Below, piece after piece: positions 44,761 to 64,000 of a stretch of DNA of 64,000 nucleotides. The notes beneath the pieces were generated by a model, which was given only the letters and a program-made list of their open reading frames with translations, ran no database searches and had not been told where the DNA came from. The stretch's first letter is position 1. Each line of letters opens with the position of its first letter. This DNA comes from Gammaproteobacteria bacterium (lineage in GTDB: Bacteria; Pseudomonadota; Gammaproteobacteria; QZLD01): assembly GCA_033852155.1 (NCBI GenBank), contig JAWSVA010000010.1:65412-129411 (forward strand). The letters are read 5' to 3'. The position numbers and the translations under genes are program-made.

Positions 44761-47727
44761 TTACTTAAATACCAAAAAGTTTGCGGCTTCTTTCAGCCCT
44801 TTAATAAACTTTTTACTAATAACAGCATAAGGGCTTTGTGCCATATTTGCGGTAAAGATTCCATTACCAACAAATGGGACCATTGCAATCTCTTCAGCAG
44901 TTCCAGCTGTGCTAAATTTATTACCACTCATGGTCAGGTAACCTGCAAACACAGCATTATCCTCTTCATGAATGATATTATCCGTTAAAGCCAAACAATC
45001 TAATGCAGGTAAGTATTGTTTAATTACACCTGTAGCAGGAACTGATGCTGAAGACACCATCCCTTTAATGGAGATAAATTTGCTGTTGGTAATACTCAAA
45101 TCTGCCCCTAGGCTTAGGAATGACTTCATCGTCTGCCTCGCTGTCATTATCTTCTTACGAGCTAGTATATTTATTGCTCTTGGTGTTCCTGAGTTCAGCC
45201 AGATATCTCCATTGATATCAGTTGATCTAATTGTTCCACCAACATGATTATTAAATAAACCTAAACATGCACCAAATTTTTTGTGCCTAATCGACCTGAT
45301 AGCTCTATCCAATGAGCCGATTAAAACAGCTTCCGATGCGTTGGTATTACCTACGTTAGCTATAAACGAATTAAAACTGGTCTTAGGAGATATTCTGGAG
45401 CGTCTAATACGGAAGTTATTTGCCGATAAGCTACTTTCATTCGCAGCAGCTGCAATGTGACTAACCTCATACCCTTCATATAACTCCGGTAGATTGGTTA
45501 CTGCTGTTCCAGCTGAATACCTGACCCATTTGGCTCTAGTATCTGCTGGCATTGCAGTGATTTTTTTAGCTACACTAAATAGCTCTCTCTTGTATGCTGC
45601 TGCATCATCAACTGAGTCAATTGCTAAAAGTTTTTCTATATCGTCAGAGATTGTGTGAACATTTCTTCCTCTTACACGAACCCCAGCACTAAAAATACCT
45701 AAAGGTGCAATTGCCTCTGTCCAGCTTGAGGTCATCGTATTATTGTCCCATAAGATTTGGGTCTCATTCTTAGCTGTTCCGACAACAACCATTGGTTTTG
45801 CTGCAGCTGAAGAAGCAATTCTGGAGAACAAACATCCTTGCGCGGTAATCTTCATCCCTTGCATAAAGATTTGCGATGCGCCTCTTAATTTGAAGGTGAT
45901 ATTTTCAAATATTAATTCATCAGCTTCAAAGTCATTTTTTTCACCTGACATTTCAACTGTAACTGCAGCTGAAGAACTACCGGATATTCTTAGACTGTTG
46001 AATTTAGTCGCTTTTGGATTTTCAGGTACGCTATGAATACCTGGCTGTAAGCATATCCAGATATCTTTCGCGCTTAAATCTGCTTTTAAAGCATCTTTTA
46101 GAGTTTCGAACTGACCACCTTTGCCGACTGTAATTAGGAAATCACTACCGCCACCTCCAGAAGGTTTTTTATTAAGTGCGATTAAAGCATCTTGAACCGT
46201 CTTGATATTAACTGGTGCCAACACCCCCGTTAAACCATTATCAGGTCTGCGTAGGTCTATATTATCTGCATCAAGAGCATCAATATCCTGCTCTATATCA
46301 ACTACAGTTTCCTGTAGACTTTCAAGTGCATCATGCACATTTTTAGCATTGCCATAAATATCAGAAGATAGGTTATCTATCGCTATATCACGCGCTTGAA
46401 TATTGGTTAAACTTGGGAAGTTCAGCTGGCGTTTTTGCTCATCTGTTAACGCCTGGATTTTTCCATTGCTGGCGATAGTAGCGATTAATAGGTAGTTATG
46501 CTTAATACCTTTTGGTAGTACTCCATCTTCGTCATCATCTGTTGCGCTAAGAATGATTCCGCCATCATAGCCATCTCTGACTACAATTTCCCAGTAATCA
46601 CCAACGATTATGTTTTTGTTCTTCAGCTCAACCTGCATCTCATGGTCTTTCAGATGCAAAGTAGCTGTATTAGCATCAACATTTACACTGCCGTGGCTCT
46701 TATTGCTGTTGACTTTTAGTGGTGCAAATCTGTCTTTTGCTGGATAATCACTAGCTTTAATAGCCCAGCTATGGCCAGCTTTAACAAGTGTGCAGCAACC
46801 ATCCCAACGTCTAACATAGTTAAACTTTTTACCAGAATCAGCTTCAACCTTTGTCTTAAGCTCACCACGTTGCAAAGCTAAACTAGCAGAGCTTTCTAGA
46901 TGCACACCGATATGCTTTTCACATGCATCGTTGTAGTGTTCAAAAATCCAATCACCAGTTTCAAAATCTTGTGGTACCGGAATCTCGTTGTTGTCATCAT
47001 CTAAAATCTGATACGCCTCAGCACCATTCTCACATGACCATTTGATTGTCACTTCTGAAGGGCTGGTTGGACTACCTTTGATATCATGCACTTCAACGCG
47101 AAAGATGTAGTTACCCGATTTTTGTACTGAGCTGCTGGCAAATGTGTCTACGTCAAAAGAATCACCTTCCACATCAACCGTTCTGTTTTTTAGTGTTAGT
47201 CGGCTGTTACCTGATGTTGGGTTTATCTTGGTTGATTGCGGATCTAAACCTAGTTTTGCACACTTTATCTGTACCATTCTTTGGGTTCTGGTACATGTGT
47301 CAGCACCAAAGAGAGCGGGATCGAGAAGGTTTTCATCTTCTAAAGAGGTAACAGATCTGTCCCAGATATCTGCATAGATATGCACGCTCTTACTTGGCAG
47401 TTTACCTAACCCTGGTAGATCTAGCTGTTTTTCAAATGAAAATGGCTGATTATCCACATCTGGAGATATCAACTCTGCAGCAACACCATTTACACTTATC
47501 TTACCTGGCTGAATTTTAAAATCACTTCCTTGCGTAGCGATTTTAAGGCCTGAATCTTTTGGTGTTCCGCTACCAATAACAGCTTGTGCTAATTGGTTTA
47601 ATCTACCGTTAACAATATCAACGAACTCATTCCAATCAGCATCGGTAAGCATTCTTCCCTGCTGCTGATATATGCCGCTGTATTGTTTCTCTTCCTGATA
47701 ACTATCTCTTGAAATTTGTGTCTTCAT
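44761..47727 (-). CDS. large eCIS distal protein (putative tail fibre / Afp13-like)
   Basis: 988 aa, last gene of the structural block and after the gpI-like gene, as fibre genes are in P2/Afp. No enzymatic motifs recognised. The call rests on position and size only. Confidence 0.35.
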   Translation of the reverse strand: MKTQISRDSYQEEKQYSGIYQQQGRMLTDADWNEFVDIVNGRLNQLAQAVIGSGTPKDSGLKIATQGSDFKIQPGKISVNGVAAELISPDVDNQPFSFEKQLDLPGLGKLPSKSVHIYADIWDRSVTSLEDENLLDPALFGADTCTRTQRMVQIKCAKLGLDPQSTKINPTSGNSRLTLKNRTVDVEGDSFDVDTFASSSVQKSGNYIFRVEVHDIKGSPTSPSEVTIKWSCENGAEAYQILDDDNNEIPVPQDFETGDWIFEHYNDACEKHIGVHLESSASLALQRGELKTKVEADSGKKFNYVRRWDGCCTLVKAGHSWAIKASDYPAKDRFAPLKVNSNKSHGSVNVDANTATLHLKDHEMQVELKNKNIIVGDYWEIVVRDGYDGGIILSATDDDEDGVLPKGIKHNYLLIATIASNGKIQALTDEQKRQLNFPSLTNIQARDIAIDNLSSDIYGNAKNVHDALESLQETVVDIEQDIDALDADNIDLRRPDNGLTGVLAPVNIKTVQDALIALNKKPSGGGGSDFLITVGKGGQFETLKDALKADLSAKDIWICLQPGIHSVPENPKATKFNSLRISGSSSAAVTVEMSGEKNDFEADELIFENITFKLRGASQIFMQGMKITAQGCLFSRIASSAAAKPMVVVGTAKNETQILWDNNTMTSSWTEAIAPLGIFSAGVRVRGRNVHTISDDIEKLLAIDSVDDAAAYKRELFSVAKKITAMPADTRAKWVRYSAGTAVTNLPELYEGYEVSHIAAAANESSLSANNFRIRRSRISPKTSFNSFIANVGNTNASEAVLIGSLDRAIRSIRHKKFGACLGLFNNHVGGTIRSTDINGDIWLNSGTPRAINILARKKIMTARQTMKSFLSLGADLSITNSKFISIKGMVSSASVPATGVIKQYLPALDCLALTDNIIHEEDNAVFAGYLTMSGNKFSTAGTAEEIAMVPFVGNGIFTANMAQSPYAVISKKFIKGLKEAANFLVFK

Positions 47728-47739
47728 TTTCGTTTCTCT

Positions 47740-49374
47740 TTAGTTCATCGCTAATGGAGCGCGTGAAAGTGTTTCATCTGGAATCAGCGCGATCTTTAAA
47801 CCGACTGGTAAATTCTCTTTAATCTTTAAAATAACTGCTTCATAACGCAGGCAATATCTTTGTTGATGATATACGCCTATCTCACCACCATTCTCTGCAC
47901 CAAATTTTATTTGCTCAGCTGCTGCAGGGTGAATCACACCGCAACCTTTTTCAGCAAATCTGGTAGTAAAAAACAATGGAGATTCATCAGTACAATTAAA
48001 CAATAAATTTGGCATTCTCAATCGATCTTGAGATGGAAAACAGCTATAACGAATGCAGCCATCTATCTTTCTGTTATAGCGGTTCTTCTCTTTACGTAAC
48101 GTGCCAGCAAAAATACAATCACTAGCTTGAATTTTTGGAGTTATAGCGCTTTTTAATACTGTGCAATATTCAAATTGAGCCATACCTGCTTTGAGATAAA
48201 CCTCTTCAAAAATTGTTCCCACTGCATCCAGAGCTGGTAGCTGCTCTGTATGAATTGAGTTAATAGTTAAGTCCTTAACTGCACAATTTACGAAGCTGAC
48301 ATTGGTTTTTTTGATATCTATATCTTTTTCAAATACTAGATTTTCAAAGTGGTATATCTTGTTTTGCAGCAAGCTGATTTTTGTACTTATTTTGACTGGT
48401 GATTCAGTTACAGCTCGATAGGTAATTTTCTCAACTTTTTCTTCGGAACCAATCCCCTCAATACTAGCACCACCAATATTTACCTCTTCTTTAGATATTT
48501 CAATCTGCTCTGAAGAATTTATTTGTGACCAAGAGATTTCCTGCATATCATCATTGAAGAATCCCTGTGGCACAGGGCAATACAAAAGGACACTGCGTGG
48601 ATTTGCATGACCACTCTTCCAGTCTGGTTCTCTTACATCTACTGTCCTACGCGATAGATCCTGATAACTACCTTGGTGAAGCGGAACCGCAGACCTGTTC
48701 TTTTGAATCCAAAGTACATCCTCTCCACCATTCTCCGCACGATCGGAGCCTGCTCCAAAGCGAGAGATATGAGTTTCTGCTGTTGCCTGTTGAGCCTTAA
48801 CTGCCATAGAGTACTTTCTGACATCTACAGTTGTGGTTAATAACCCTGGATGTTTTGCTGCTGTTAATGGCTTGCTGGCATCTACATCTTTCTCACCATA
48901 GCTACTTTCAGGCATAATCGGGGCATCAATCCGCGGTGTCATTGCAACGCGCTTCCACCCTTCTTGAACCTCAACCTCCATATCGCCAATGTTTTGCGCT
49001 ATCTCTTCGGTTGCTACAACTGTGCCGCGCCTTTGTCTCCACCTAACCGCATTGGCTATCTCTTTTGACTGACCTTTGGCATCTGGTGAAACTAGGTTTA
49101 CATCAAGTAGGTCAGAGAAATAAGGAAGTAACCACGGCTGGCAACTTATATCTTTCTCATCTTCAGATGAAGAGTTAAACGGAAAATTATCTGCATAGAA
49201 CTGGTCGATATTGGATGATATCTCATCTAACAGACCACCAAATACAGATAGTAAGTTTTTGAGGTCACCGTCATCCTCTTTTGAATTATCACGAGCACGA
49301 TAAACCGTTGGCATCAACTTATATAGCATCTCGCTATGGCTTAGTTTATCTTTTTGTTTATTAGTATTAGTCAT
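47740..49374 (-). CDS. phage P2 gpI-like baseplate protein (Afp12-like)
   Basis: The 544-aa N-terminus LYKLMPTVY...QPWLLPYFSDLLDVNLVSP...ANAVRWRQRRGTVVATEEIAQNIGDMEVEVQEGW parallels P2 gpI (LLPWLAWAFSVD...W...KGT...G...EWW). There is a 4-nt overlap with the upstream gene. Confidence 0.55.
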   Translation of the reverse strand: MTNTNKQKDKLSHSEMLYKLMPTVYRARDNSKEDDGDLKNLLSVFGGLLDEISSNIDQFYADNFPFNSSSEDEKDISCQPWLLPYFSDLLDVNLVSPDAKGQSKEIANAVRWRQRRGTVVATEEIAQNIGDMEVEVQEGWKRVAMTPRIDAPIMPESSYGEKDVDASKPLTAAKHPGLLTTTVDVRKYSMAVKAQQATAETHISRFGAGSDRAENGGEDVLWIQKNRSAVPLHQGSYQDLSRRTVDVREPDWKSGHANPRSVLLYCPVPQGFFNDDMQEISWSQINSSEQIEISKEEVNIGGASIEGIGSEEKVEKITYRAVTESPVKISTKISLLQNKIYHFENLVFEKDIDIKKTNVSFVNCAVKDLTINSIHTEQLPALDAVGTIFEEVYLKAGMAQFEYCTVLKSAITPKIQASDCIFAGTLRKEKNRYNRKIDGCIRYSCFPSQDRLRMPNLLFNCTDESPLFFTTRFAEKGCGVIHPAAAEQIKFGAENGGEIGVYHQQRYCLRYEAVILKIKENLPVGLKIALIPDETLSRAPLAMN

Positions 49375-52346
49375 ACAGAATAGTCCTCCACCGTGATGCT
49401 AATCTGTGGAATATTGATATCTAGATGTACCAATTGTTTCGGTGATGGTTGTACCATTCTAACGACGTCATCATCGCCTTTGATAACACGTGGTCGCTGT
49501 GCATTTGCAGGAACTTCAATGCCCCCGTTCTCAAGATCAATGGTGCAATCAGAGTTGGTAACGCCTTCTATATTTTCTACCACCTTATAGATCTCACCAC
49601 GGTGCAACGATTGCCCCAGCTCACGGTTGTTCACCGAGAATTCAGCTGCAATCTTCTGCTTAACTTCGTTATTAATAACTTCAGAACTATAACGATTAAG
49701 GTCTGCTCGAATAGTGATATTTATACTTACAATAACCGGCTGGTAAGCACTGGTTTTTATCATCACACCTGGAATTGCACGTTTTTGCAGAAACTCTTTA
49801 ATCTGGTCACTGACAAATTCGAGCCCTGTTCCACCAACTGGAACAATCACCACGTCGATAAACTCACGACGGCTTTTGCTCATGGTGCTCATAAATGAAC
49901 TTGCCTGCAGCACAGACGAATGGGTGCGAGCCAGTTTAGAAAAATCATCCAACGAAACCGCTCTTTCTAAACTCAGAACAGCGCCCGGTGCATTTTGCCC
50001 CATCTGCTGTGAGTTCTCCATCTGGTGTCCACCATATGTAGCGCTTGGTTGATATACCTCTTGCAGCAATGGATGCATCTTGGCTGGTTTGGTGATTTTT
50101 TGTGCAGGGATATTACCCCCTTCACCAACACCCTGTCTGAAATTCAGGCGTACATTATTCTTACCGGTAGGAACACGTCTGCCATTGTTTCCGTCACCAA
50201 ACTCAATCTTAATATTTCCACTTTCAGTCATTTTGACAACATAGTGCATATCAACTGAATCTGAATCTTTTAGGTTGGCTACCTGAGACCATTTCTGACC
50301 ATCTATTAAAACTTCAATATCAGCTCTAACGCCAGTAGACATTGAGCTGTCTGGTACAAAGCTGACATTTTTGGCGTTTACCTCAAATGCTTGATTTGCG
50401 GTGGTTGCATCACCACTACCAAGCACCATAGCTGGTTTAACTGCACCATGACTAATGGCTATAACATTTGCATAGATGCTTGTGTTACCAATTTCAAATC
50501 CACCAGATAAATTGTCTGCAAGAGTTATAACATCACCACTGATATCTTTAACAGATGTCAGTACAGTATTGCCTTCTGTTTCAATTAGTACTTTGCGCCC
50601 TAACCTAAGAGAGGCCGGAAGCTGCTGTAAAACTATTTTCTTGCCCGCAATAACATTATGATTTTCTGTGGAATCAATCAGATAAGCCTGCTCTTTAAAG
50701 GTTGTATAAACCTTGGTCTGAGAGATAAAGAATGGGCCACCACCATGGTCATTCCACCTGTTTTCAGCAGTTATATAAGCAGCCTCTTCGTCCTGATTAA
50801 TTCGCGCACTTTCCACCTTAGCCCAGGTAATTTGTGCTCCGCGAACTATTGCTGCAAAGTCACCTGTTGCTATCTGTTTTGGCTCTGTTGTACAGATAGT
50901 TTGCACCAATCTTCCGTTATTACTTCTCGAAAGAAATGGGTCAACATCCCATGAGCTATCAGCACGATTTGGAACATTAAGAGTTTGTGGATTTTTTATC
51001 TTTAAATCAGATAGGTTTCCGGTGGTTGCTTTAACCATTGCATGGTCAGGGTTCCAAACAATTGTCAGCACTGTAAACCCAGGTTCTAATGTCGCATCAT
51101 CAACCTCAGCACCTATTGGGGTGTATTTAGCTGCTGTGACATTGTAATGAACTAGTAAGCTTTTTCCTTTATGAACTCTTGTATCGCACACCCACTTATT
51201 GGCTAAATATGACCAATCACCAGCAGCATATACCACCATGATATAGTTGTTATTTTTCTTCACCGGGCGCTTGGCATAACGCACGATTGGTAAAGCAATA
51301 GTATCGATGATTTTGGAATGTTTGTGGTCTATATGTCCAACCGATTCACTGAAGGTAACTCGGTTTTTATTAATCTCTTTAACACGGCGGTAACTGTGAT
51401 TTCTGCCATTGTATATCGCAACAATTTCACCAGATAAAAGATCTTTAGGCTCTTCTTTTAAGTGCAGGGTTTTATCAACCTGTGAACTTAAAGAGATTGG
51501 TCCTTTTGCCTGTAGCTTTTCCTTCGGTAATAGGTGAACAGTGGTATAGCCTTTTCTGAAAGAGTTTGATATCTCACCACCAAGTCCAATTGTGGTTTTA
51601 TCTTTCTCAACTTTGAGCGAAGTGATAAGCAGTGCCTGAATCTTGCCAGCATTGTGCCTCATGGTTGATTCAAGAATTACCGGCTCACCAATCTTGAGTT
51701 TTTTAAACTCACCAGCCAGCATTAACTCATTGCCAGATATTCTTTGTTGATTACTGTTATACCCTTTTGCCCTTAGTAGGTTCAGTTGCGCATCAACTTC
51801 TAGCTTCTCAATAGTTTCATAGGTTTTTGGTTCTGAACCATCTTCTGGAGCGTATTTAAATTGAACCCCTTTATCCACTATTCCCAACTTGGCTTCTTTT
51901 ACAAACAGCGCGATATCAGTTGTAGCAGAAGCAGGAGGAGCAGGATAATAATCAAGCATTGCCACCAAGCGACGCATGCTATCCCACTGCGTTGCTGTTC
52001 CAATATATCTTTCATTAGCATATGCATTGATATGCTCTGTTAGAACATGGCATCCACGAGCAAAGCTACGTGACACTTCAAATAATAGGTCTTTGGTCTT
52101 ACCCTGATTTTGGTCAATGCCAGCGTATTGATTTTCTACTCTGGTTTTTGATTCCGACTCAGTTTCATTACTCGAATCGTGTTGTACTTTTTCCCATTGT
52201 GGAAACTTATCTGCTAACCCTTCCCTTATCTTTTCCAGATATGTAGCTGCATTACCATCTACATATTGAAACTTTTCCAGGCCAGCACGATTCCAACGAG
52301 TCAGGTCATTAGTTAGGCTGTTATTAGTTTGACTATTATCTGTCAT
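49371..52346 (-). CDS. large baseplate-associated protein (gp6/gp7-like wedge component, Afp11/12-like)
   Basis: 991 aa, translationally coupled (TAATG) to the Baseplate_J-like gene upstream and overlapping the gpI-like gene downstream. No specific motif recognised. Confidence 0.35.
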   Translation of the reverse strand: MTDNSQTNNSLTNDLTRWNRAGLEKFQYVDGNAATYLEKIREGLADKFPQWEKVQHDSSNETESESKTRVENQYAGIDQNQGKTKDLLFEVSRSFARGCHVLTEHINAYANERYIGTATQWDSMRRLVAMLDYYPAPPASATTDIALFVKEAKLGIVDKGVQFKYAPEDGSEPKTYETIEKLEVDAQLNLLRAKGYNSNQQRISGNELMLAGEFKKLKIGEPVILESTMRHNAGKIQALLITSLKVEKDKTTIGLGGEISNSFRKGYTTVHLLPKEKLQAKGPISLSSQVDKTLHLKEEPKDLLSGEIVAIYNGRNHSYRRVKEINKNRVTFSESVGHIDHKHSKIIDTIALPIVRYAKRPVKKNNNYIMVVYAAGDWSYLANKWVCDTRVHKGKSLLVHYNVTAAKYTPIGAEVDDATLEPGFTVLTIVWNPDHAMVKATTGNLSDLKIKNPQTLNVPNRADSSWDVDPFLSRSNNGRLVQTICTTEPKQIATGDFAAIVRGAQITWAKVESARINQDEEAAYITAENRWNDHGGGPFFISQTKVYTTFKEQAYLIDSTENHNVIAGKKIVLQQLPASLRLGRKVLIETEGNTVLTSVKDISGDVITLADNLSGGFEIGNTSIYANVIAISHGAVKPAMVLGSGDATTANQAFEVNAKNVSFVPDSSMSTGVRADIEVLIDGQKWSQVANLKDSDSVDMHYVVKMTESGNIKIEFGDGNNGRRVPTGKNNVRLNFRQGVGEGGNIPAQKITKPAKMHPLLQEVYQPSATYGGHQMENSQQMGQNAPGAVLSLERAVSLDDFSKLARTHSSVLQASSFMSTMSKSRREFIDVVIVPVGGTGLEFVSDQIKEFLQKRAIPGVMIKTSAYQPVIVSINITIRADLNRYSSEVINNEVKQKIAAEFSVNNRELGQSLHRGEIYKVVENIEGVTNSDCTIDLENGGIEVPANAQRPRVIKGDDDVVRMVQPSPKQLVHLDINIPQISITVEDYSV

Positions 52347-53548: not shown

Positions 53549-53946
53549 TACAATGACTCCTTAGACAGTGAAAATGTTTGTCGCTCAGTAAAGCCTATTG
53601 TTGCCAGCGTATAAGCGACATGGATATGTAGCATCTCACCATCACCTGCCACATTAACATCGATAGTCTTCGGATCTACCTCGCCGTGCAGCGCCTGAGC
53701 GAGAGACGAGATAAGCCTTTTGCGCGTTACCTGCCACATTGCTGATGTATTTGGTTCAAAAACCAATGTACGCAACCCTGCACCAAATTCCGGGCGAAAC
53801 ACCCTCTCACCAGGATTGGTGAATAATACCTGCTCAATCTGACCACGCACATGTGCGCTTCTGTTCGCCAGGTTGGCTCCATTTTTGCCAACTCTAAGCG
53901 GGAAACTCAGGTATGGAGGATCTACTAATCTTTTTCCCATGTTCAT
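53548..53946 (-). CDS. GPW/gp25-like baseplate wedge protein (Afp9-like)
   Basis: 132 aa with the gp25 signature region VRGQIEQVLFTNPGERVFRPEFGAGLRTLVFEPN. Confidence 0.8.
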   Translation of the reverse strand: MNMGKRLVDPPYLSFPLRVGKNGANLANRSAHVRGQIEQVLFTNPGERVFRPEFGAGLRTLVFEPNTSAMWQVTRKRLISSLAQALHGEVDPKTIDVNVAGDGEMLHIHVAYTLATIGFTERQTFSLSKESL

Positions 53947-55185: not shown

Positions 55186-55246
55186 TCGCATCACGGTTAT
55201 TACCCAACTCCTTTCTTTTTAAAGAAACAGAGGGTAATCCATTTTT

Positions 55247-56386: not shown

Positions 56387-56574
56387 CGTTTTATCTATAG
56401 GCCTCGATTTGTTTTACCACTTTTACATATTCGGATGTAGCTTTATCAGCAATCCCGCGGCACATACCTATGCCTTTGGCTATAAGCTCTATACATAGCT
56501 TTTTTACCAATCTGAAAAGAATTAATTTTTTAACTTTTTTCATGTTCCTTTGCCTTTTTTGATGTTTTTAAAAC

Positions 56575-56695
56575 AAAGTGGTTTCGACTACGCTCAACCG
56601 ACTTGTTTTTTGGTGCAATGCGCTTCGCTTATTGACACCCTACATTTTCCGTCCTTCAATCTATGCATTCCCACGCAGAGCGTGGGAACGAGAAG
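56575..56695. repeat. intergenic repeat copy (d): GTTTCGACTACGCTCAA, GCTTCGCTTATTGACACCCTACATT and TTCCCACGCAGAGCGTGGGAACGAG
   Basis: Read directly from the sequence. Lies between the LysM and hub genes. Confidence 0.65.
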
Positions 56696-56706
56696 GTATT
56701 TTATTA

Positions 56707-57000
56707 TTATTCAGATTCCCGCGGAATCAGAATAATCTCACCAATCATATTGCTATCTAACATCAGGTCGGCTCCGTATGAGATATGGGGATTAGCATCC
56801 AGAATGCGCCACCACATACGGTCGTTGTTGTAGTAGTTTTGTGCTAGATGGTCTAAACGGTCACCCTGCTTTATCTCATACTCAACTACGCCTGTTGCCG
56901 GTTTAATATCTCTGAATCTCAGCCCTTTAAAGCCAGTTCCGCTAGTTTCGGATGGAGTAAATCCCGGTGTGTCTTTGTATCTAGATCTATCGGCTCTCAT
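56707..57000 (-). CDS. LysM-domain protein (Afp7/Pvc7-like baseplate/tube-initiator associated)
   Basis: 97 aa with the LysM signature YEIKQGDRLDHLAQNYYNNDRMWWRILDANP. Start overlaps the stop of the upstream tube-like gene (ATGA). Confidence 0.65.
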   Translation of the reverse strand: MRADRSRYKDTPGFTPSETSGTGFKGLRFRDIKPATGVVEYEIKQGDRLDHLAQNYYNNDRMWWRILDANPHISYGADLMLDSNMIGEIILIPRESE

Positions 57001-57635
57001 CAGAACAGGCCTCCTATCTGATTACCAAGATTCATAGCTGCTCCTATAACCTGGCGAATCTTCTCTGCTTTGTAGAAGATGTTGTTCCCTTCGATTACCT
57101 TCATAGAAAGGCTTACCTTGGCGCGATATGGAACTAGATTTGGGAAATGGTCGAGCTGCTCGACAGTGATTGATGTCAGAAATACTGGCAAAACATGACT
57201 GCCCCAGATAAACAACAATACTGAAGCAGACTTATCACGCTGAAATGCTCTGCTGCCACCGAAACCTAATCCAGCCAACATCTGCATTCCGCCAGGGCCG
57301 CTCTCTTTCGGCTCTACCATTGTTCTTAAAGTATCTAACTCTGGTTCGATACCGAAAGTCTCAGCAATTGTATTACCCTCTTCCAATCTATCAGTTGCAT
57401 CAATCAATACGTCGATGGTGAAGGTTTCTGGTTCTACACTTACACCTTGTGCAACCTTTGGAGTCTCTGTAGGTAAAACAAAATCATAACCACTTCTACC
57501 AGGAACATTGGTTTTTTTAATGGTAATGGTTCTGGTTCTGGTAAGGGTTTTTGGATTGAAATCGAACCCTAATACCAACGGTGGTATTGAGAGTGCATAT
57601 TCAACCAAAACTCCTTTTGTAACATTTAACATCAA
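57000..57635 (-). CDS. second tail-tube-family protein (Afp5/tube-initiator-like), tentative
   Basis: 211 aa. The N-terminal segment LVLGFDFNPKTLTRTRTITIKK and the C-terminal hydrophobic beta pattern resemble gp19/Afp tube proteins. Position directly before the LysM gene mirrors Afp5-Afp7. Confidence 0.4.
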   Translation of the reverse strand: MMLNVTKGVLVEYALSIPPLVLGFDFNPKTLTRTRTITIKKTNVPGRSGYDFVLPTETPKVAQGVSVEPETFTIDVLIDATDRLEEGNTIAETFGIEPELDTLRTMVEPKESGPGGMQMLAGLGFGGSRAFQRDKSASVLLFIWGSHVLPVFLTSITVEQLDHFPNLVPYRAKVSLSMKVIEGNNIFYKAEKIRQVIGAAMNLGNQIGGLF

Positions 57636-57922: not shown

Positions 57923-57935
57923 TGTTCCCTCTCTT

Positions 57936-59282
57936 TCAATTCAAACCACCCTCTAAATATTCCTTAAGGGGTCCAAGGTCTGAATCAAGTAGCTCTCTGC
58001 CATCTTTTGCCATCTCGCGCCAAACTGCAGTAGCGAGGTGTTTATATTCAATCTGTGTTGCATCAGCGGCTGCAAGATACGCTGCATTTAGTGCTGCATT
58101 CTTGATATTTCCGCCATTAAAATTAGAGATTTTCGCTAAAACTGACAAATCAATTTCACTAGATATCGGAGCCTTTGGTGGCAAGCTTTTGCCCCAAATA
58201 TTCTTACGTGAATTAGCATCAGGGCGCGGAAATTCGACCACAACTTGAAAGCGTCGTAAAAAAGCTGAATCTATATTCTTACGGATATTTGTAGTTAGAA
58301 TGCATGGAGTACTAATTGTCTCCAGGCGTGATAACAGGTGACTTACTTCAAGGTTGGAATAACGATCTTTAGATTCCTTGATATCGCCTCTTTTGCCAAA
58401 CAAACTATCCGCTTCATCAAATAGTAAAACTACATCACGACACTCGGCTGTATCGAAAAGACTATTAAGGTTCTTTTCAGTTTCACCAATATATTTACTC
58501 ACCAAACGCCCTAAATCTACTTTATACAGTGGGCGTCCAATCTCGCTGGCAATGATAGATGCCGCTAGTGTTTTACCTGTTCCAGATGGCCCACTAAAAA
58601 GGGCTATCGGTCCGCCAGATTTTTTACCTTGCCACTGCTCAATTACGGTAGATTTATACTTAATCCAGTTGAGATATTCCTGCAACATCTGAACACGGTC
58701 AGCAGGAAGGATAAGGTCACCCCATGAATACTCTTCATCAACCAGGGTTGCACCAGGAAGTTCGATAGCACTGTTGTCGTTGCCAAGAAACAGCTGTACT
58801 ACACCAGGCATCAAACGTAGAGGAGAATAAAGCTCAAACTCCTCATGCTTTATCAGGTTCTCATTTAGCAAGCTTGAGCCGCGCTCAAACACTTTGTAGA
58901 ACTCACCAAGCACTCTCAAATCGATGCAAAGTAGATCTATCAATAATGCTGCAGATGGAAAGTTAGAATTGGTTGATTGCAATCTTTGATATGCCCAACC
59001 CACAGCTGGGTCAAGCTCTGGGGCCAACATGCACGCTAGAACATCGGCCTCCATTAATGACAGTTCAAGTTTACATATACTTTCCCAAAATGGCTGATTG
59101 TTCCTCAGCGAGAAAATCTTATTCTGAACTGCACTTAGTTTTTCGTATTCACTGTTATCTACCGTACCAGCCTTACGGCTTGTCTCTAGAATCGAGCAAA
59201 GAATACGTACCCTTTCACACTCAAGCTCGAGTGTAGCCAGATCGTTATCTTTAAACTCATCTAAAGCAGTGGCTAACTTCAT
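57936..59282 (-). CDS. AAA+ ATPase (eCIS Afp15/Pvc15-like, single AAA module)
   Basis: 448 aa with Walker A (GPSGTGKTLAASIIA), Walker B (VLLFDEADSLF) and an arginine-finger region. The N-terminal ~200 aa is non-ATPase. Embedded in the tail-like cluster. Confidence 0.8.
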   Translation of the reverse strand: MKLATALDEFKDNDLATLELECERVRILCSILETSRKAGTVDNSEYEKLSAVQNKIFSLRNNQPFWESICKLELSLMEADVLACMLAPELDPAVGWAYQRLQSTNSNFPSAALLIDLLCIDLRVLGEFYKVFERGSSLLNENLIKHEEFELYSPLRLMPGVVQLFLGNDNSAIELPGATLVDEEYSWGDLILPADRVQMLQEYLNWIKYKSTVIEQWQGKKSGGPIALFSGPSGTGKTLAASIIASEIGRPLYKVDLGRLVSKYIGETEKNLNSLFDTAECRDVVLLFDEADSLFGKRGDIKESKDRYSNLEVSHLLSRLETISTPCILTTNIRKNIDSAFLRRFQVVVEFPRPDANSRKNIWGKSLPPKAPISSEIDLSVLAKISNFNGGNIKNAALNAAYLAAADATQIEYKHLATAVWREMAKDGRELLDSDLGPLKEYLEGGLN

Positions 59283-59914
59283 TTATCAGCCTCACAAACA
59301 GTAGTTTTAATACCGTGTTCTTTTACCGTGTCCATATCTGCTTTTTTATATGAGATATCAGACACAGTGATGAGAGAAACTTTTTCCACTGGAGGAGCCG
59401 GAATCTTTTTCTCTTTAGGAATAATCGGTGTTATTGAAATTTCGTATCCAATCGATGGTCTGTAGGTAACATCACGCTGATTGTTCCACACCTGATTAAT
59501 CTCTTCGATGGTCAACCCTTGTTGAATAATCTGTATAAAGAACTCTTCACCATCTTCAATCTTCACCTGTACAAATGGTTTCTCATGCAAGATGCGGATA
59601 ACTTCGCCCAGAAAACGCAGATCGTTTTCTCCAGAGCTGACATTATCTTCAGTAACTGCAAATGGAGTTATCAGGCAATGGGTCTTAGTCATTAAATTCT
59701 CGCCTGATGTGGTATCTGGCGAAAATGCATAAGGCTCAATTCTATAAAAGAAAAGATTAATCTTATGGTCAGAATCCTGCCCTGCTGGTTGAGCATTGGC
59801 TGGATTACCCAGCACTACGCGAACATCAGAACCATCATCAATAATATTATCACTGATATGTCTGGCAACCGCGTTGCAAACCTTTGATAGGGAAGAAGGA
59901 GAAGGAGCTGCCAT
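59279..59914 (-). CDS. putative tail terminator/cap protein (DUF4255/Pvc16_N-like), tentative
   Basis: 211 aa, the typical DUF4255 size. N-terminal pattern VRVVLGNPANAQP...INLFFYRIEP fits the G.P...LFLY.V.EN consensus I recall for this family. Stop-start coupled (TAAATG) with the upstream gene. Confidence 0.4.
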   Translation of the reverse strand: MAAPSPSSLSKVCNAVARHISDNIIDDGSDVRVVLGNPANAQPAGQDSDHKINLFFYRIEPYAFSPDTTSGENLMTKTHCLITPFAVTEDNVSSGENDLRFLGEVIRILHEKPFVQVKIEDGEEFFIQIIQQGLTIEEINQVWNNQRDVTYRPSIGYEISITPIIPKEKKIPAPPVEKVSLITVSDISYKKADMDTVKEHGIKTTVCEADK

Positions 59915-61300
59915 TTATATTCTCCTCGTATAGTATTTACTAGAGCCAGATTTACTAGAGCTAGCGTTACTAGAAAAACTACTATTGCTGGATTGACTGC
60001 TAGATGCAGATGAGAAATGATTAGCGGATTCACTTTTAGGTTCTGGAGCAGCAGTAACGATTACATCAATATGTCCAATGCTAACTTTAGGCTGCAACTG
60101 ATTTGCTTTAGAAGAACGGTTTTCACCTTGTGGTTTATTCTTTAGCTTCTGCGCCCTGTTATTCGAACGTTTTGAACCCAGCTGTTTTCTACCATTCAAC
60201 TCAAATAGGTCTTCAATTTGAGTCTCAGCTTCAGATTTTTCTTTTTGATTAGATGGTCTATATCTGTTTTTAGATTGTTTTGAATCTGATGATAGAGCAC
60301 TTACAGCAGACTCTAACTCGGAGAAGATACTAGTCATATCTATCGACTTTTCACCTTCACCGTTAGCATGTTTTTTAGATAAGCGTTCAGAACTTTTTTC
60401 TAAACGCTCAGGCCCTCTAGTGTAACGCTCAGGCCCGTTTTCTAAACGCCCAGGCTGAGTGCGCTGCCCCTGACTGTCTCTCAGATTTATGCCTTCTTCA
60501 TCAATACTCGTCTTACTTTCACGTTGATTTATCTGACTCTTAGTGAGTTCGACCTTTCGATCATAGAAAGACTTGTCTGAATTATAGCGATTGTGCAAAA
60601 TTTTATCACACTCACGCCCAACAGAACTGCTCTCAAAAAACTCAGAATCCGACATATAATCACGATCATTTTCAGCACCATACTTCAGCTTCCGATCTAT
60701 ACTGGATTTATTCACATTAATTTCATGTAAATGTTCATCAGAACCACCACCTTTTGGGTTAATCATTTGTGACTCTTCAGAACAAGGGACATTATCACGC
60801 ACTCTAGATCGCGTTTTCAGCGACCGTTCTACCTGAACACTGTGTAACTCAGCAGCTAAGTCAATTTGAAGGTCATCTTCAATTGACTGTTCATCTGCAG
60901 AGTTAAATTCTTCTCCCTCAACTTCAGGAGTATTGGTTTGGATCTTTTGACTAGATAATTTCGAGCTCTGTAAATTACCATTTTCTAAATTATGCCCTTC
61001 ACGCATAAGGCTATGCGACACATCTTTATCAACTGATTCTTTACTGAATCGCGGTATATGGATATCAGAATCAATATTGGCATCAGCCAAAGGAAATGCA
61101 TTTGAATTGTCCTGCAGGTGACTACTCTGATGACCAGTTTTTTGTAAGCTAGTTTTTGAAGAGCTCAGGCTCGACAAATCGTGGCTGTGTAATCCTTGGT
61201 CATCCGCGTTATTAGAAGAACTATTTGAGCGCATAAAACCACGCTTGGCAGAAGTATTTCCTGCAGCACAGTCCTGAATTATCTCGCTAAAAAATCCCAC
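59915..61300 (-). CDS. highly disordered Ser/Asn/Lys/Glu-rich 461-aa protein (tape-measure candidate or cargo)
   Basis: Almost no hydrophobic segments and Ser-rich termini. Sits between the sheath/tube genes and the cap/ATPase genes. Confidence 0.4.
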   Translation of the reverse strand: MGFFSEIIQDCAAGNTSAKRGFMRSNSSSNNADDQGLHSHDLSSLSSSKTSLQKTGHQSSHLQDNSNAFPLADANIDSDIHIPRFSKESVDKDVSHSLMREGHNLENGNLQSSKLSSQKIQTNTPEVEGEEFNSADEQSIEDDLQIDLAAELHSVQVERSLKTRSRVRDNVPCSEESQMINPKGGGSDEHLHEINVNKSSIDRKLKYGAENDRDYMSDSEFFESSSVGRECDKILHNRYNSDKSFYDRKVELTKSQINQRESKTSIDEEGINLRDSQGQRTQPGRLENGPERYTRGPERLEKSSERLSKKHANGEGEKSIDMTSIFSELESAVSALSSDSKQSKNRYRPSNQKEKSEAETQIEDLFELNGRKQLGSKRSNNRAQKLKNKPQGENRSSKANQLQPKVSIGHIDVIVTAAPEPKSESANHFSSASSSQSSNSSFSSNASSSKSGSSKYYTRRI

Positions 61301-61329
61301 TATATAACCTCTTCTTTCAACCTTTTGTT

Positions 61330-61436: not shown

Positions 61437-61438
61437 AA

Positions 61439-62290
61439 TCACTCTTCAGCAAAAGAGTCCTTATCTATCAAACCAAGATAGGTCTCTCTTCTACTTCTGC
61501 TTAGTGCCAAAATCTCCGCCTCACTCCAATTATAATTAAGAGCTATAGTGTGGATCTCATTAAACAGATCTTTTCCGCCTTCCTTTTGCAACAAGTAGTA
61601 CGGATCTAAACGAATTTGATGCTCTGTCCCACACTCTGGGCAACCAGCATTAATACTAGTAATAATTCCCGGAGAAACCTCATCAAGCGCCGCCTCAATC
61701 TTCTCCAGATCTTCAGCGGTAAACTCAAGATTCTCATTAGAACAAAGGCATAATCCGATTAATAAATCTTCGGCGCCTTTCATATCTATTTTACGATTGG
61801 TCTTATCTGTAAGACTTGCTACTGCCTCTTGGTCAACACCAGTTGGGACACGGAATGTTTTAGCCCCATGTGATGTATCAAGAGTAATGAACGGAAAACT
61901 CTTCTGAGCAGGAGTTACTGGAAAATCAGAATTGGTAAGTTGGAAATCAAAATCCGCCTTACAATTTGAGCACTTTTTAGAAAACCAATAAGAATCATAA
62001 CCAAGCATAATTGCCAGTTTGCGCATCAGAAACTGTCTGTCGGCAACCGAAAAATTATGGACGATATCGCGAGTAGGCTTCCTACCCTCAAAGGTCTCTA
62101 GTGCAGCCACCAATACAGACGTAACCAAAGATGGCACAGATGTAACCTGAGCAGAAAGTGAAGCAGGAGCAGATTCAACCCCTACCATCGCTTCAATAAT
62201 ATCCAGCTCCATCTGCCCGGTTAAAGAGCGAAAACTATAGCTCTTTAAACAGGTTCGGCCATCCCAATATCCACCAGGAAGTGTTTCCAC
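61439..62290 (-). CDS. hypothetical eCIS-associated protein with putative Cys4 zinc ribbon
   Basis: 283 aa with CSNCK...(~100 aa)...CPECG cysteine pairs. No family recognised. Located between the tube gene and the disordered protein. Confidence 0.3.
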   Translation of the reverse strand: METLPGGYWDGRTCLKSYSFRSLTGQMELDIIEAMVGVESAPASLSAQVTSVPSLVTSVLVAALETFEGRKPTRDIVHNFSVADRQFLMRKLAIMLGYDSYWFSKKCSNCKADFDFQLTNSDFPVTPAQKSFPFITLDTSHGAKTFRVPTGVDQEAVASLTDKTNRKIDMKGAEDLLIGLCLCSNENLEFTAEDLEKIEAALDEVSPGIITSINAGCPECGTEHQIRLDPYYLLQKEGGKDLFNEIHTIALNYNWSEAEILALSRSRRETYLGLIDKDSFAEE

Positions 62291-62324
62291 TATTCCTTAC
62301 CTCGCCTTTCAGCTAAAGCCACAA

Positions 62325-62834
62325 CTAAGCTTCAGTCGGCTCTGATACGCTAGTATCTCTTTCCCAGCCTTCATGCTGCAAAGTGACAGTTTGAATACCA
62401 ACAGCGTTCATGCTACCAGCATCCAAATCAGGCAATGCCTGAAAATCAGAAACCCAAGCACGATAAAGCTTATAAGAGATAGCAACCTCACCTTGCAGAT
62501 TAAGGACATTGATGATGATATCTTTTCTGAAGTTCTTTAAAGAGATCGCAGAATCGCCATCAATATTGTTCACTGACTTAGCCCAATCCTCAAAAATAGG
62601 ATCGTGAGTCAAACCCATCTCTAAAGTAACAGGCTCGTAGCTTGAACCACCAGGCATTACTCTCTCGTGAGAAGGATCGCCTGCACTACGCCATTTAACC
62701 GCTTCAGTCTTTTTCTTCAGTGCGCCCATCTTGCGTAGACCAGCTACTGACTTACCATCGATAATCACCTGAAACTTAAAAGTTCTGTAAGGATCATGAC
62801 GGTGCGTATTAACATTAAACATTGGTGCTGCCAT
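62325..62834 (-). CDS. contractile tail tube protein (T4 gp19 / Afp1-Pvc1 family)
   Basis: 169 aa. YRTFKFQVIIDGKSVAGLRKMGALKKKTEAVKWRSAGDPSHERVMPGGSSYEPVTLEMGLTHD matches the tube-protein signature F.F.V.I.G..V.G.....GL....EV.EYR.GG...PG...Y..vTL..G.t.D. Confidence 0.85.
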   Translation of the reverse strand: MAAPMFNVNTHRHDPYRTFKFQVIIDGKSVAGLRKMGALKKKTEAVKWRSAGDPSHERVMPGGSSYEPVTLEMGLTHDPIFEDWAKSVNNIDGDSAISLKNFRKDIIINVLNLQGEVAISYKLYRAWVSDFQALPDLDAGSMNAVGIQTVTLQHEGWERDTSVSEPTEA

Positions 62835-62911
62835 TGTTTTATTCCTTTTTCAATTCTTCCCTGAAAAAGCCCTCAAGAGAGCTTTCTCAGATTGATTACT
62901 TATTCGTTAGC

Positions 62912-64000
62912 TTATTGCTGTCCAACTTTTTGTTGGATTCTCAAGATTACAAACTCAGCAGGTTTTAACGGCGCAAAACCAACAACAGCAATAACTTGTC
63001 CTCTGTCGATATCAGCTTGAGTCATTGTGTCACCAAGTCCACAACGCACAAAATAAGCATCAGAAGCCTTAGTACCTTGGAAGGCACCGGCACGGAAAAG
63101 ACCATTCATAAACGATTCAATATTCACACGCAGTGAAGACCAAAGGTCATTATTATTTGGCTCAAACACAGCCCATTGAATGCCGTCAGAAACGCTTTCC
63201 TCAATAAACATAGCTGTTCTTCTGACAGGAACATAACGCCACTCAGGGTCAGCCTTAGTGGCCAGAGTACGCGCACCCCAAACAACAGAACCATAAGATG
63301 GCAATGTTCTAAGAGCATTAACACCAAGAGGATTCAGATAATCCTGCTCGCTATCTTCAACGATATACTCAAGACCATTAAGGCCAAGTACACCAGTTTC
63401 AACACCAGCAGGAGCTTTCCACACACCACGTCTAGCGTCAGTCTTAGCCCATATGCCAGCTGCAAAAGCAGAAGACTGAACCAATACATTCTTAGCAGCT
63501 CCTGGGTTAGTGTCTGCATTATAGAAAGGATTTGAAACTTGCGCCCAAGGATAATAAGTTGCGCAGTAAGTTTTAGTAGGAAGACCAAGATCGGTAACAT
63601 CCTTCTCTTGCTCCAGCTCAGTGCTAGGAGGAAGATCGACGATAACCATACGGCTCTTCATCTGCTCACAGTGAGCCACCGCAGATTCAATCGCAGGCTT
63701 ATGAGCGCTGTTCCACCATTTGCCAGGAAGACAGATAACATTGATATCACGAATCTTCACAAACTTAGCGAATACATAATCATAAGCGCCGTTATCAGCA
63801 GCAGCACCATCTTTGCCACCTTCCAACACAACCTCAACCGCATCACCAGCAGCAAGCTTATTAATAGCAGCAGCTTTAAGGCCAGATAAAGCCTCAGCAG
63901 AGATATAGTTTGAAACACCGTTGATATTACCAACGATATACTCAGCTTTATCAGCAGAGTTTAAGCTGATGTCAGCGAATCTCTCTGCAGCTTCAAAATC
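62912..64000 (-). CDS. contractile tail sheath protein (gp18/Afp2-4 family), 5' end beyond window
   Basis: The reading frame stays open on the minus strand from 63829 to position 64000 (checked codon by codon), so the gene is truncated by the window edge. The C-terminal region (GVNALRTLPSYGSVVWGARTLA...AYFVRCGLGDTMTQ) is typical of the sheath C-domain. Confidence 0.8.
   Translation of the reverse strand, partial: DFEAAERFADISLNSADKAEYIVGNINGVSNYISAEALSGLKAAAINKLAAGDAVEVVLEGGKDGAAADNGAYDYVFAKFVKIRDINVICLPGKWWNSAHKPAIESAVAHCEQMKSRMVIVDLPPSTELEQEKDVTDLGLPTKTYCATYYPWAQVSNPFYNADTNPGAAKNVLVQSSAFAAGIWAKTDARRGVWKAPAGVETGVLGLNGLEYIVEDSEQDYLNPLGVNALRTLPSYGSVVWGARTLATKADPEWRYVPVRRTAMFIEESVSDGIQWAVFEPNNNDLWSSLRVNIESFMNGLFRAGAFQGTKASDAYFVRCGLGDTMTQADIDRGQVIAVVGFAPLKPAEFVILRIQQKVGQQ

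Follow-up and report, generated by a model that had tools for sequence, protein, structure and literature searches.

Extracellular contractile injection systems (eCIS) of subtype Ia, represented by Afp of Serratia entomophila and PVC of Photorhabdus, are encoded by operons with three sheath genes, with the cap and ATPase genes at the operon end. Chen et al. (2019, PMC6899500) described a lineage II with subtype-specific gene organisation: afp8 is split into gp27 and gp5 open reading frames in IIa, IIb and IIc, no Afp14 homologue occurs in the lineage, IIb has no PAAR, one afp11 copy and a divergent afp12, and IId has a fused VgrG. DUF6519 fibres on a Tail_P2_I adaptor have been catalogued as the 'eBAP5' baseplate type, with 658 DUF6519 fibre-locus genes (PMC12923769, 2026), and toxins with an N-terminal DUF4157 domain have been validated (Geller 2021).

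We analysed a 64,000-nucleotide stretch of DNA from a marine gammaproteobacterium (the window), in which a chromosomal operon on the minus strand (44761–64000) encodes the sheath-to-fibre genes of a contractile injection system, most of them overlapping or abutting (Table 1). Every gene named in the preliminary description is present in this co-oriented operon. By contrast, its proposal that the cluster continues past the window edge holds only marginally: what extends past position 64000 is the 5' end of the sheath gene (162 codons), and in relatives the operon starts with sheath. Nor does the cluster end at 44761, since the description had missed a payload module just downstream (40432–44636), consisting of a DUF4157 effector and three small genes; the functional unit reaches to about 40432. 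The gene cluster for the phage-tail-like contractile machine and its toxin is apparently complete. In agreement with that description, no capsid, portal, terminase, integrase or T6SS gene was found among the 20 larger open reading frames scanned in 1–42000. These are housekeeping or signalling genes, one without a Pfam match, and include rlmE, carAB, dapB, dnaKJ and recN and genes for an AcrB-type efflux pump, methyl-accepting chemotaxis proteins (MCPs), a subtilase and a LysR regulator. A hybrid histidine kinase (36107–39922) was called from its own sequence and the Pfam matches of its homologue in the related locus L017. Housekeeping genes flank the cluster both in the window and in relatives.

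Table 1 Features of the contractile injection cluster and its payload module (window positions).
Feature	Position	Strand	Evidence or remark
Tail sheath (Afp2/Cis2-like)	62912–64000	-	PF04984 6e-13; PF17482 1e-13
Inner tube protein (gp19/Afp1/Cis1-like)	62325–62834	-	PF06841 2e-38; TIGR02241 5e-31
X, T4 gp26-like baseplate-hub-assembly protein	61439–62290	-	Tail-assembly-chaperone-like domains and zinc ribbon
Y, disordered length-variable protein	59915–61300	-	Candidate tape-measure or tube-lumen protein
Tube/sheath terminator cap (Afp16/Pvc16 N-terminal domain only)	59279–59914	-	PF14065 Pvc16_N 8e-20
AAA+ ATPase (Afp15/Cis15-like)	57936–59282	-	PF00004 3e-27; PF22977 3e-9
Small conserved protein, 96 aa	57632–57922	-	No family match
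Second tube-fold protein, candidate tube initiator (Afp5/7-like)	57000–57635	-	PF19266 CIS_tube 1.1e-5
Putative LysM/P2 gpX-like baseplate protein	56707–57000	-	PF05489 Phage_tail_X 5e-4
gp27/gpD-like baseplate hub (N-terminal half of VgrG)	55247–56386	-	Structure matches (see text)
gpV/gp5-like spike with C-terminal HxH apex	54192–54992	-	PF04717 7e-22
gp25/gpW baseplate wedge protein (Afp9)	53548–53946	-	PF04965 2e-12
gp6/Baseplate-J-like wedge protein (Afp11-like)	52346–53548	-	TIGR02243 5e-14; PHROG_6 and PHROG_10646 4e-6
Large gp6/J-like wedge (second Afp11 copy or Afp12-like), 991 aa	49371–52346	-	TIGR02243 2e-31
Putative gpI/Tail_P2_I-like fibre adaptor, large C-terminal extension	47740–49374	-	PF09684 0.007
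Tail fibre, N-terminal DUF6519 ('eBAP5') baseplate-attachment domain	44761–47727	-	PF20129 6e-13
Effector, DUF4157/eCIS_core (HEIAH) and C-terminal zinc PLC/S1-P1 nuclease-fold domain	42216–44636	-	
Three small accessory genes after effector	40432–42203	-	Weak profile matches only
Scar of deleted effector array	40206–40374	-	Match to L017 DUF4157 genes

The sheath, tube, spike, gp25, cap and ATPase assignments held up, each matching its expected profile (PF04984, PF06841, PF04717, PF04965, PF14065 and PF00004). The window carries the C-terminal 362 of the 524 residues of the sheath, and the reading frame at the window edge was checked. A full-length copy from the related locus L002 gave its best matches among solved structures to the sheaths of the Streptomyces CIS (8bky/8bl4, 7e-80) and a haloarchaeal CIS (9ezm, 9e-77); phage and T6SS sheaths were not among the closest, these E values of about 1e-77 to 1e-80 compare with 1e-9 for pyocin, and the similarity to solved CIS is family-level only. 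The cap lacks the C-terminal domain carried by relatives of 339–353 aa, no remnant of which was found in the window; this domain-short form, unlike most relatives, could mean altered or impaired capping. The ATPase (448 aa) consists of a single AAA domain and a winged helix. The second tube-like protein matches PF19266 with 25.6 bits, under the cut-off of 27, and its homologues give the same match. The cap, the second tube-like protein and the smaller J-like protein (J400) had no PDB sequence match below E 0.1.

For the remaining baseplate proteins the expected profiles were less informative. The hub had no Pfam match, and PF04865 matched neither J-like protein. Nevertheless, the roles proposed for these proteins are supported by other families: the hub matches residues ~20–340 of VgrG-like chains of solved CIS (9rce, 1.6e-9; AlgoCIS 7aef, 7e-6; tCIS 7b5h, 7e-5) and VgrG_rel (8e-6), and both J-like proteins match TIGR02243 and PHROG wedge families, the larger also matching PHROG_219 baseplate wedge (4e-19) and the J-like chain of the Streptomyces coelicolor CIS, CIS-Sc (9gtp_1K, 0.005). 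The gpI-like protein matches PF09684 weakly at residues 78–163 and pyocin PA0619 (0.005) at residues 75–142, the same N-terminal stretch, and its homologue in the related locus L013 gives a weak Tail_P2_I match. The LysM protein additionally matches LysM NF008399 (0.004) and PHROG_7145 baseplate (1e-9). At the sequence level, the tube-initiator, gpI-like and LysM assignments are all tentative. The hub and spike are encoded by separate genes, as previously described. The HxH motif of the spike is conserved in 8 loci; no PAAR open reading frame was found after the spike gene or in the window's other gaps, and in distant loci just 3–22 nt separate the spike gene from the gp25 gene.

Three proteins add to this core. 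X (283 aa) shows similarity to hub assembly proteins of the T4 gp26-like type and to the tail assembly chaperone of HK97; its homologues form 636 clusters at 50% identity (E<=1e-30), and it had no PDB sequence match. Y matched no family in profile searches, PHROG included, and showed no homology to Afp14. Its termini are conserved in 8 loci (N-terminal MGFFSEII.D; C-terminal IG.IDV.V ... S(R/K)NY.RR(I/L)), and its middle, which ranges in length between 302 and 481 aa across loci, tracks genome composition. Y lies between the chaperone-like gene X and the terminator, where phages encode the tape measure; however, it is serine/asparagine-rich and predicted to be disordered, whereas phage tape measures are helical, which counts against a tape-measure reading. 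All related loci whose sequence covers the position of the 96-aa gene have an open reading frame of 73–100 aa there.

The gene order is as previously described, sheath–tube–X–Y–cap–ATPase followed by later baseplate genes and then the fibre, and it differs from that of Afp and PVC. The conclusion that this order marks a divergent lineage did not survive comparison. Each gene has a counterpart of similar size at the same place in Desulfobulbus propionicus, Chitinimonas naiadis, distant gammaproteobacterial MAGs and a JGI metagenome contig, and a Thermoanaerobaculia MAG contig has this order over the sheath-to-ATPase stretch that it covers. The order spans Gammaproteobacteria, Betaproteobacteria, Desulfobacterota and Acidobacteriota, and what seemed 'unusual' is standard and conserved within a large, already catalogued branch. 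The traits of lineage II had been published in 2019 (PMC6899500). All eight 'core backbone' components of Chen 2019 are present, and, judged by composition only (no PAAR gene), subtype IIb is most likely the best fit: separate gp27-like and gp5-like genes stand in for afp8, an Afp14 homologue is absent, Afp12-like and fibre genes are present, and X, Y and the 96-aa protein would be the subtype-specific extra genes. Two proteins here match J-like models, in contrast to the single afp11 and divergent afp12 of IIb. As in eBAP5 loci, the gene for the fibre with its N-terminal DUF6519 immediately follows a Tail_P2_I-like gene; those loci, however, largely lack Afp12 homologues, whereas a 991-aa J-like protein is present here. 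The occurrence of eBAP5 correlates with Actinobacteriota, but every eBAP type is also found in some Pseudomonadota (PMC12923769); the host here is a gammaproteobacterium.

We considered whether this order instead defines a new eCIS sub-lineage outside existing catalogues. In the part of the catalogue available to us, the Geobacter, Dechloromonas and Magnetospirillum entries have the cap ahead of the sheath, with the ATPase either also ahead of the sheath or behind the baseplate genes, and Desulfobulbus propionicus was not among the entries listed; moreover, a structure has been solved for none of the systems with this architecture. This possibility is nonetheless unlikely, because the composition agrees with published lineage II and subtype IIb, complete carrier genomes, D. 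propionicus DSM 2032 for example, are older than the surveys of 2019 and 2021, the genus Chitinimonas appears as an eCIS carrier in that same part of the catalogue, DUF6519 fibre loci were catalogued in 2026 and hundreds of homologous clusters exist.

Comparison with other systems places the locus further. Afp and PVC belong to the same superfamily, with the same predicted mechanism, and share sheath, tube, gp25, J-like wedge, Pvc16_N cap, AAA+ ATPase, fibre and 3' toxin genes. By contrast, the present cluster has one sheath gene, a mid-operon cap and ATPase, separate hub and spike genes, neither a PAAR gene nor an Afp14 homologue, a single-domain ATPase, an effector with a DUF4157 N terminus, and a DUF6519 fibre on a Tail_P2_I-like adaptor in place of the adenovirus-like Afp13. 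Like our locus, CIS-Sc (IId; 8bky/8bl4/9gtp) and the haloarchaeal CIS each build their sheath from one protein, and effectors of the DUF4157 type are found in that part of the tree. IId differs in its fused VgrG (PMC6899500), and a IId-like Chloroflexi locus (L009) has ATPase and DUF4157 genes upstream of the sheath.

The order is that of the phage P2 and R-pyocin tail modules, FI-FII-(chaperone)-(tape measure)-(terminator)...X-D then V-W-J-I-H, with the ATPase and tube initiator inserted. This parallel, together with the LysM gpX-like protein, the P2 gpV-like HxH spike apex, the weak match of the gpI-like adaptor to pyocin PA0619 and the REP-like elements inserted in three intergenic gaps, could point to an R-type tailocin that acts by membrane puncture alone, or to a decaying, functionless prophage tail module. 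Both are highly improbable: the Pvc16_N cap, AAA+ ATPase, extra tube-fold (CIS_tube) protein and DUF4157 cargo are eCIS markers rather than tailocin components, as is the DUF6519 fibre an eCIS-specific marker, and the sheath is far closer to CIS than to pyocin. Furthermore, the open reading frames are all intact, the structural proteins are 82–98% identical between MAGs with their order kept (the closest relatives being MAGs of order QZLD01), and no head, lysis or integrase genes were found. A disordered protein takes the place of the helical tape measure, and the chaperone-like protein is a gp26-like zinc-ribbon protein. Markers and gene absences thus uphold the placement of the locus in the eCIS/PLTS superfamily, neither prophage nor canonical T6SS. 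The locus very probably encodes a complete eCIS lineage II contractile injection system and its cargo.

The payload is consistent with this reading. Similar to the validated toxins, the effector has an N-terminal DUF4157 domain and lies at the 3' end of the cluster, and its C-terminal domain carries an invariant H-x3-D-x5-H motif. The accessory genes encode a lipoprotein-like protein of 231 aa, a protein of 94 aa and a two-TM protein of 226 aa with a weak DUF4231/SLATT match; all three are found in L017, and the 226-aa gene alone is kept in the related locus L019. L017 has three extra DUF4157 genes, and the scar matches the start of the first (5' ~100 nt) and the end of the last (3' ~70 nt). 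Effector number thus varies between close relatives (one versus four), as expected for cargo.

On the observed gene content, order, homologies and conservation, and by homology to solved systems, we propose that the hub, HxH spike, LysM protein, tube-initiator-like protein, gp25, two gp6/J-like wedges and gpI-like adaptor would form a baseplate bearing DUF6519 fibres. The gp19-like tube would polymerise on it around Y as a ruler or lumen protein, helped by the chaperone-like X, and the single sheath protein would assemble in the extended state until terminated by the Pvc16_N cap. The ATPase may aid loading of the DUF4157 effector; in published systems, a role for the ATPase in cargo loading (PMC11495950) and its dispensability for particle formation (PMC10020575) have been described. 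After release of the particle, fibre binding to a target cell would trigger sheath contraction and drive tube and spike through the target envelope, delivering a zinc phospholipase C/nuclease-fold toxin.

Because the closest solved sheaths come from systems that act from inside the cell, 'extracellular' is not established for this cluster. It is possible, albeit doubtful, that the same kind of machine stays unreleased and fires inside its producer, cytoplasmic or membrane-anchored, as in the Streptomyces CIS (stress-induced cell death), the thylakoid-anchored tCIS of Anabaena and the contact-dependent haloarchaeal system. The window showed no holin/endolysin cassette, and the two-TM DUF4231/SLATT-like protein that adjoins the effector in relatives could be a membrane partner. 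However, the conserved 988-aa DUF6519 fibre and gpI-like adaptor argue for release, fibres being a hallmark of particles that bind a target from outside; Streptomyces clusters have no conventional fibre, no CisA-like anchor was recognised here, and the sheath similarity does not go beyond the family level. As a lineage II system, the locus adds to a known kind, and its new details are X, the Y termini, the HxH spike tip, the cap without a C-terminal domain and the payload.

Consistent with an extracellular contractile injection system (eCIS), we found that six genes of the cluster are strongly supported by profile matches. The sheath matched PF04984 and PF17482, and its closest counterparts in the PDB are sheaths of contractile injection systems (CIS; 7e-80); the tube matched PF06841 (2e-38), the cap PF14065 (Pvc16_N, 8e-20), the AAA+ ATPase PF00004 (3e-27, plus a winged-helix domain), the spike PF04717 (7e-22) and gp25 PF04965. 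The other assignments are weaker and mutually consistent. A second tube-fold protein matched CIS_tube at 1e-5, as do its homologues in other loci. At weaker scores, the LysM protein matched Phage_tail_X and PHROG baseplate families, and the gpD-like hub aligned with VgrG-like chains of three solved CIS structures, in each case with the N-terminal half, which is gp27-like. Two gp6/Baseplate-J-like (J-like) proteins of 400 and 991 aa matched TIGR02243 and PHROG baseplate-wedge families, and two independent weak matches of the 544-aa gpI-like protein, to Tail_P2_I and to pyocin PA0619, fell on the same N-terminal stretch. The 988-aa fibre carries DUF6519 at its N terminus (PF20129, 6e-13, residues 1-66); together with the weak Tail_P2_I/PA0619 matches of the gene upstream, this fibre type and adaptor match the eBAP5 / Tail_P2_I class of baseplates, published in 2026 (PMC12923769). 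Sequence searches of the PDB with the protein after the tube (protein X), the effector and the fibre returned nothing significant, and those with the cap, the second tube-like protein and the 400-aa J-like protein gave no match below E 0.1. The core eCIS/CIS backbone as defined by Chen et al. 2019 is present, with a sheath, a tube, an Afp16-type cap, an Afp15-type ATPase and counterparts of Afp7, Afp8, Afp9 and Afp11 (Afp, the Serratia antifeeding prophage, being the eCIS reference). These profile and weaker supporting matches bear out the preliminary description, which placed a sheath-to-fibre gene set at 44761-64000 and proposed checking it with profiles that include those matched here by the sheath (PF04984), tube, cap, ATPase, spike and gp25.

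From 64000 down to about 40432, all sizeable ORFs lie on the minus strand and the majority of their junctions overlap or abut. The sheath gene runs in frame across the window edge at 64000, and its full length of 524 aa was read from a Logan contig encoding an identical tube protein. In two of the closest-relative MAGs the operon opens with the sheath gene; a conserved ribosome-binding site lies ahead of it, and the genes farther 5' are unrelated (one MAG has pheST/thrS there, the other has genes for an FAA hydrolase and a nucleotidyltransferase). Because the sheath comes first in these relatives and is preceded by unrelated genes, the cluster ends at the sheath; what had been read as a cluster running on past the window edge amounts to 162 sheath codons. 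ORFs directly upstream of the sheath in two related loci (L005 and L008) were considered as cluster genes and rejected as unrelated secreted proteins. A scan for an operon promoter and terminator found nothing above shuffles. REP-like palindromic elements fill the only sizeable intergenic gaps within the operon; among them are GTGGGCA(N)TGCCCAC, a 33-mer (TATGCATTCCCACGCAGAGCGTGGGAACGAGAA) in two identical copies and a 50-nt inverted pair. Genes parted by these gaps in the window abut in distant relatives.

The remaining 40 kb of the window are ordinary chromosome, with rlmE, carAB, an AcrB-type efflux pump, dapB, dnaKJ, an NAD kinase, recN, a GGDEF response regulator, four methyl-accepting chemotaxis protein (MCP) paralogues, a LysR regulator, a subtilase and a hybrid histidine kinase. 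The last two occupy the same flanking position in L017, the closest relative, and in L019, which indicates that the insertion site is conserved distally and not on the sheath side. No TssB/TssC, TssM/TssJ/TssL or ClpV was found in the cluster ORFs or in the 20 flanking window ORFs scanned, and a scan of ten ORFs 5' of the sheath gene in two relatives gave no T6SS gene either. No capsid, portal, terminase or integrase gene was found linked to the tail module; housekeeping genes make up the flanks in the window and in L005, L008, L017 and L019. On this flanking gene content we rejected the prophage and T6SS readings. The earlier assignment to an eCIS thus stands, and none of the capsid/terminase or TssBC/TssM/ClpV genes that had been thought worth seeking beyond 64000 turned up among the ORFs scanned upstream of the sheath in the two relatives. 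The closest relatives (sheath identity 83-96%) are gammaproteobacterial MAGs of the order QZLD01 from marine polyhydroxyalkanoate plastisphere biofilms.

Features of the locus and its flanks, in window coordinates (genes of the cluster are on the minus strand)
Feature	Coordinates	Remarks
Protein X	61439-62290	follows the tube gene
Protein Y	59915-61300	disordered; precedes the cap gene
Tandem repeats in Y	60384-60455	~14 residues; PERYT/PERLE units
Cap	59279-59914	211 aa
Hub, gp27-like	55247-56386	separate from spike
Spike, gp5-like	54192-54992	separate from hub
J-like protein, 400 aa	52346-53548	
J-like protein, 991 aa	49371-52346	
REP-like palindromic elements	44654-44686, 53986-54000, 55013-55130, 56562-56694	
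231-aa protein	41508-42203	directly after effector; lipoprotein-type signal (…FSFSGC)
226-aa protein	40432-41112	two TM helices; weak DUF4231/SLATT matches
Effector-array deletion scar	40206-40374	~170 nt
Hybrid histidine kinase	36107-39922	GAF, HisKA, receiver, Hpt; distal flank of locus
Subtilase	33248-35995	Ig-like domains; distal flank of locus
Four MCP paralogues	24625-30261	tandem; common 144-nt repeat family

Homologue searches with the cap and protein X reached loci in several distant hosts, namely two distant gammaproteobacterial MAGs (L010 and L011), a JGI metagenome contig (L013), Desulfobulbus propionicus (L015), Chitinimonas naiadis (L016) and a Thermoanaerobaculia MAG (L020). As far as the DNA of each locus extends (the L020 contig ends one small ORF past the ATPase), all have one and the same succession of genes, closely alike in size: sheath, tube, X, Y, cap, ATPase, small ORF, tube-fold protein, LysM-size ORF, hub, spike, gp25, J-like protein of ~400 aa, J-like protein of ~950-990 aa and gpI-like protein of ~520-560 aa. 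Among 1.84 billion representatives, the X profile matched 636 clusters (50% identity) at E<=1e-30 and 5,695 at E<=1e-10. With the same order in several distant hosts, the description of the locus as a non-canonical, newly divergent lineage was overstated. The contrast that it drew with Afp/PVC (subtype Ia) was correct: those operons have a fused VgrG-like Afp8, and the ATPase and cap at the 3' end, whereas here hub and spike are separate genes, and cap and ATPase come fifth and sixth. Those operons also have three sheath paralogues, against one sheath gene here.

In lineage II, gene organisation is conserved within each subtype and particular to it (Chen et al. 2019, PMC6899500). According to that study, IIa, IIb and IIc have afp8 divided into gp27 and gp5 ORFs, lineage II as a rule has no Afp14, PAAR is missing from IIb alone, and Afp12 and Afp13 are found in lineage I and IIb. 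At the present locus the afp8 counterpart is split into gp27-like and gp5-like genes, and neither a PAAR gene nor an Afp14 homologue was found; Y, at the phage tape-measure position, matches no family. Judged by gene composition, the locus fits best with subtype IIb. In the lineage II loci of Geobacter, Dechloromonas and Magnetospirillum, the cap gene precedes the sheath gene, and the ATPase gene either also precedes the sheath gene or follows the baseplate genes. Since these loci are arranged otherwise, the present order is one of several conserved arrangements. It is an architecture without an experimentally studied close relative.

Protein X (283 aa) has a high-confidence predicted fold (pLDDT 93.8) that resembles phage T4-like baseplate hub assembly proteins over its full length (Foldseek E 2e-13, TM 0.63-0.70). 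It gave a marginal PF12322 match and a PHROG 'baseplate hub' match, and four of its cysteines are invariant. This full-length similarity, and its position beside the tube and tape-measure-position genes, mark X as a gp26-like tail assembly chaperone. In a Chloroflexi IId-like locus (L009, 12027-12706), two overlapping ORF pieces after the tube match the X profile weakly (E 1e-5 and 9e-4); they may represent a frameshifted chaperone-like gene, comparable to phage G/GT.

Protein Y is conserved at its ends, with MGFFSEII.D at the N terminus and a C-terminal strand and tail (IG.IDV.V ... SRNYLRRL). The middle, 302 to 481 aa long depending on the locus, tracks genome composition. The orthologue in L008 has more copies of the ~14-residue repeat, suggesting that Y varies in length by repeat expansion. 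The maps of phage P2 and R-pyocins run FI-FII-E-T-U, with X-D and V-W-J-I-H later. With the cap included, the series of sheath, tube, chaperone, ruler and terminator reproduces this tail order. From its position and conservation pattern alone, we therefore infer that Y would play the part of a tape measure or a tube-lumen protein.

An HxH motif near the C terminus of the spike is kept in all eight loci compared. In P2 gpV, an apex with this motif is reported to bind iron (Browning et al. 2012). No cluster ORF matched PAAR, and the window's 250-320-nt gaps around the spike contain no candidate ORF; a PAAR gene in these gaps was therefore rejected, and REP-like palindromes lie there instead. In relatives the spike-gp25 gap is 3-22 nt, leaving a PAAR gene no room.

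The cap consists of Pvc16_N alone, as in the two closest MAGs, and its stop codon overlaps the ATPase start. Longer caps, of 339-353 aa and with a further C-terminal domain of ~140 aa, occur in a 74%-identity relative and in all distant relatives; a short cap (191 aa) also occurs in the Thermoanaerobaculia locus. No remnant or displaced copy of this domain was found within the window. Its absorption into a longer Y was considered and rejected, the extra Y length being low-complexity repeats. Loss of the domain looks recurrent and tolerated.

Directly after the fibre lies a gene for an 806-aa protein with a DUF4157/eCIS_core domain (PF13699, 2e-25, residues 118-194) containing a HEIAH motif. 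An N-terminal DUF4157 at the operon 3' end is an arrangement linked to eCIS toxins (Geller et al. 2021). With its N-terminal HExxH domain, its place at the operon 3' end and its variable C-terminal domain, this protein is a putative toxin. The C-terminal domain is predicted to adopt a PLC/P1-nuclease fold, and the C-terminal 612 residues define a family of 25 homologues, 16 of them annotated DUF4157. H373-x3-D377-x5-H383 is invariant; in Bacillus cereus PLC the zinc ligands H118/D122/H128 are spaced alike. L017 has three further DUF4157 genes (14203-20969), flanked by the accessory genes on one side and the histidine kinase on the other; the deletion scar in the window matches 5' sequence of the first of these genes and 3' sequence of the last. 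Of the three small genes that follow the effector, the one for the 226-aa protein alone is kept in the window, L017 and L019, and its product could act in immunity, as a membrane partner or in release. The 231-aa lipoprotein-like gene occurs in L017 and not in L019; it possibly encodes an immunity protein.

Because fibres and a 3' toxin are present, we give somewhat better than even chances to a released extracellular particle that binds a target. A particle that fires inside the cell or while anchored would agree with the nearest solved sheaths, which come from systems firing inside the cell or by contact, and with the fact that no lysis genes were seen; the fibres and 3' toxin speak against it, and we consider it unlikely, though a serious contender. 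Beyond the released particle, it is conceivable, if rather doubtful as a whole, that the conserved sheath-tube-X-Y-cap-ATPase architecture represents an experimentally untouched eCIS sub-lineage retaining an ancestral P2-like tail-assembly module. Such a module would comprise a gp26-like zinc-ribbon chaperone and a disordered ruler that drifts in length by tandem-repeat expansion and sets particle length instead of a helical tape measure; an iron-type HxH apex would stand in for PAAR, and clade-specific loss of the cap C-terminal domain would alter sheath capping.

These results add a well-resolved lineage II contractile injection system from marine biofilm gammaproteobacteria, with relatives from plastic-degrading communities, and do not overturn current understanding. 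They supply annotations for three genes left blank in catalogues: X as a gp26-like chaperone, Y as a candidate ruler or lumen protein, and the spike with its HxH tip. They also describe a family of DUF4157 effectors that has a predicted zinc phospholipase C / nuclease fold and varies in copy number between close relatives. Their value is as a guide to a cultivable representative (Desulfobulbus propionicus, Chitinimonas) for a first structural or functional study of this architecture.
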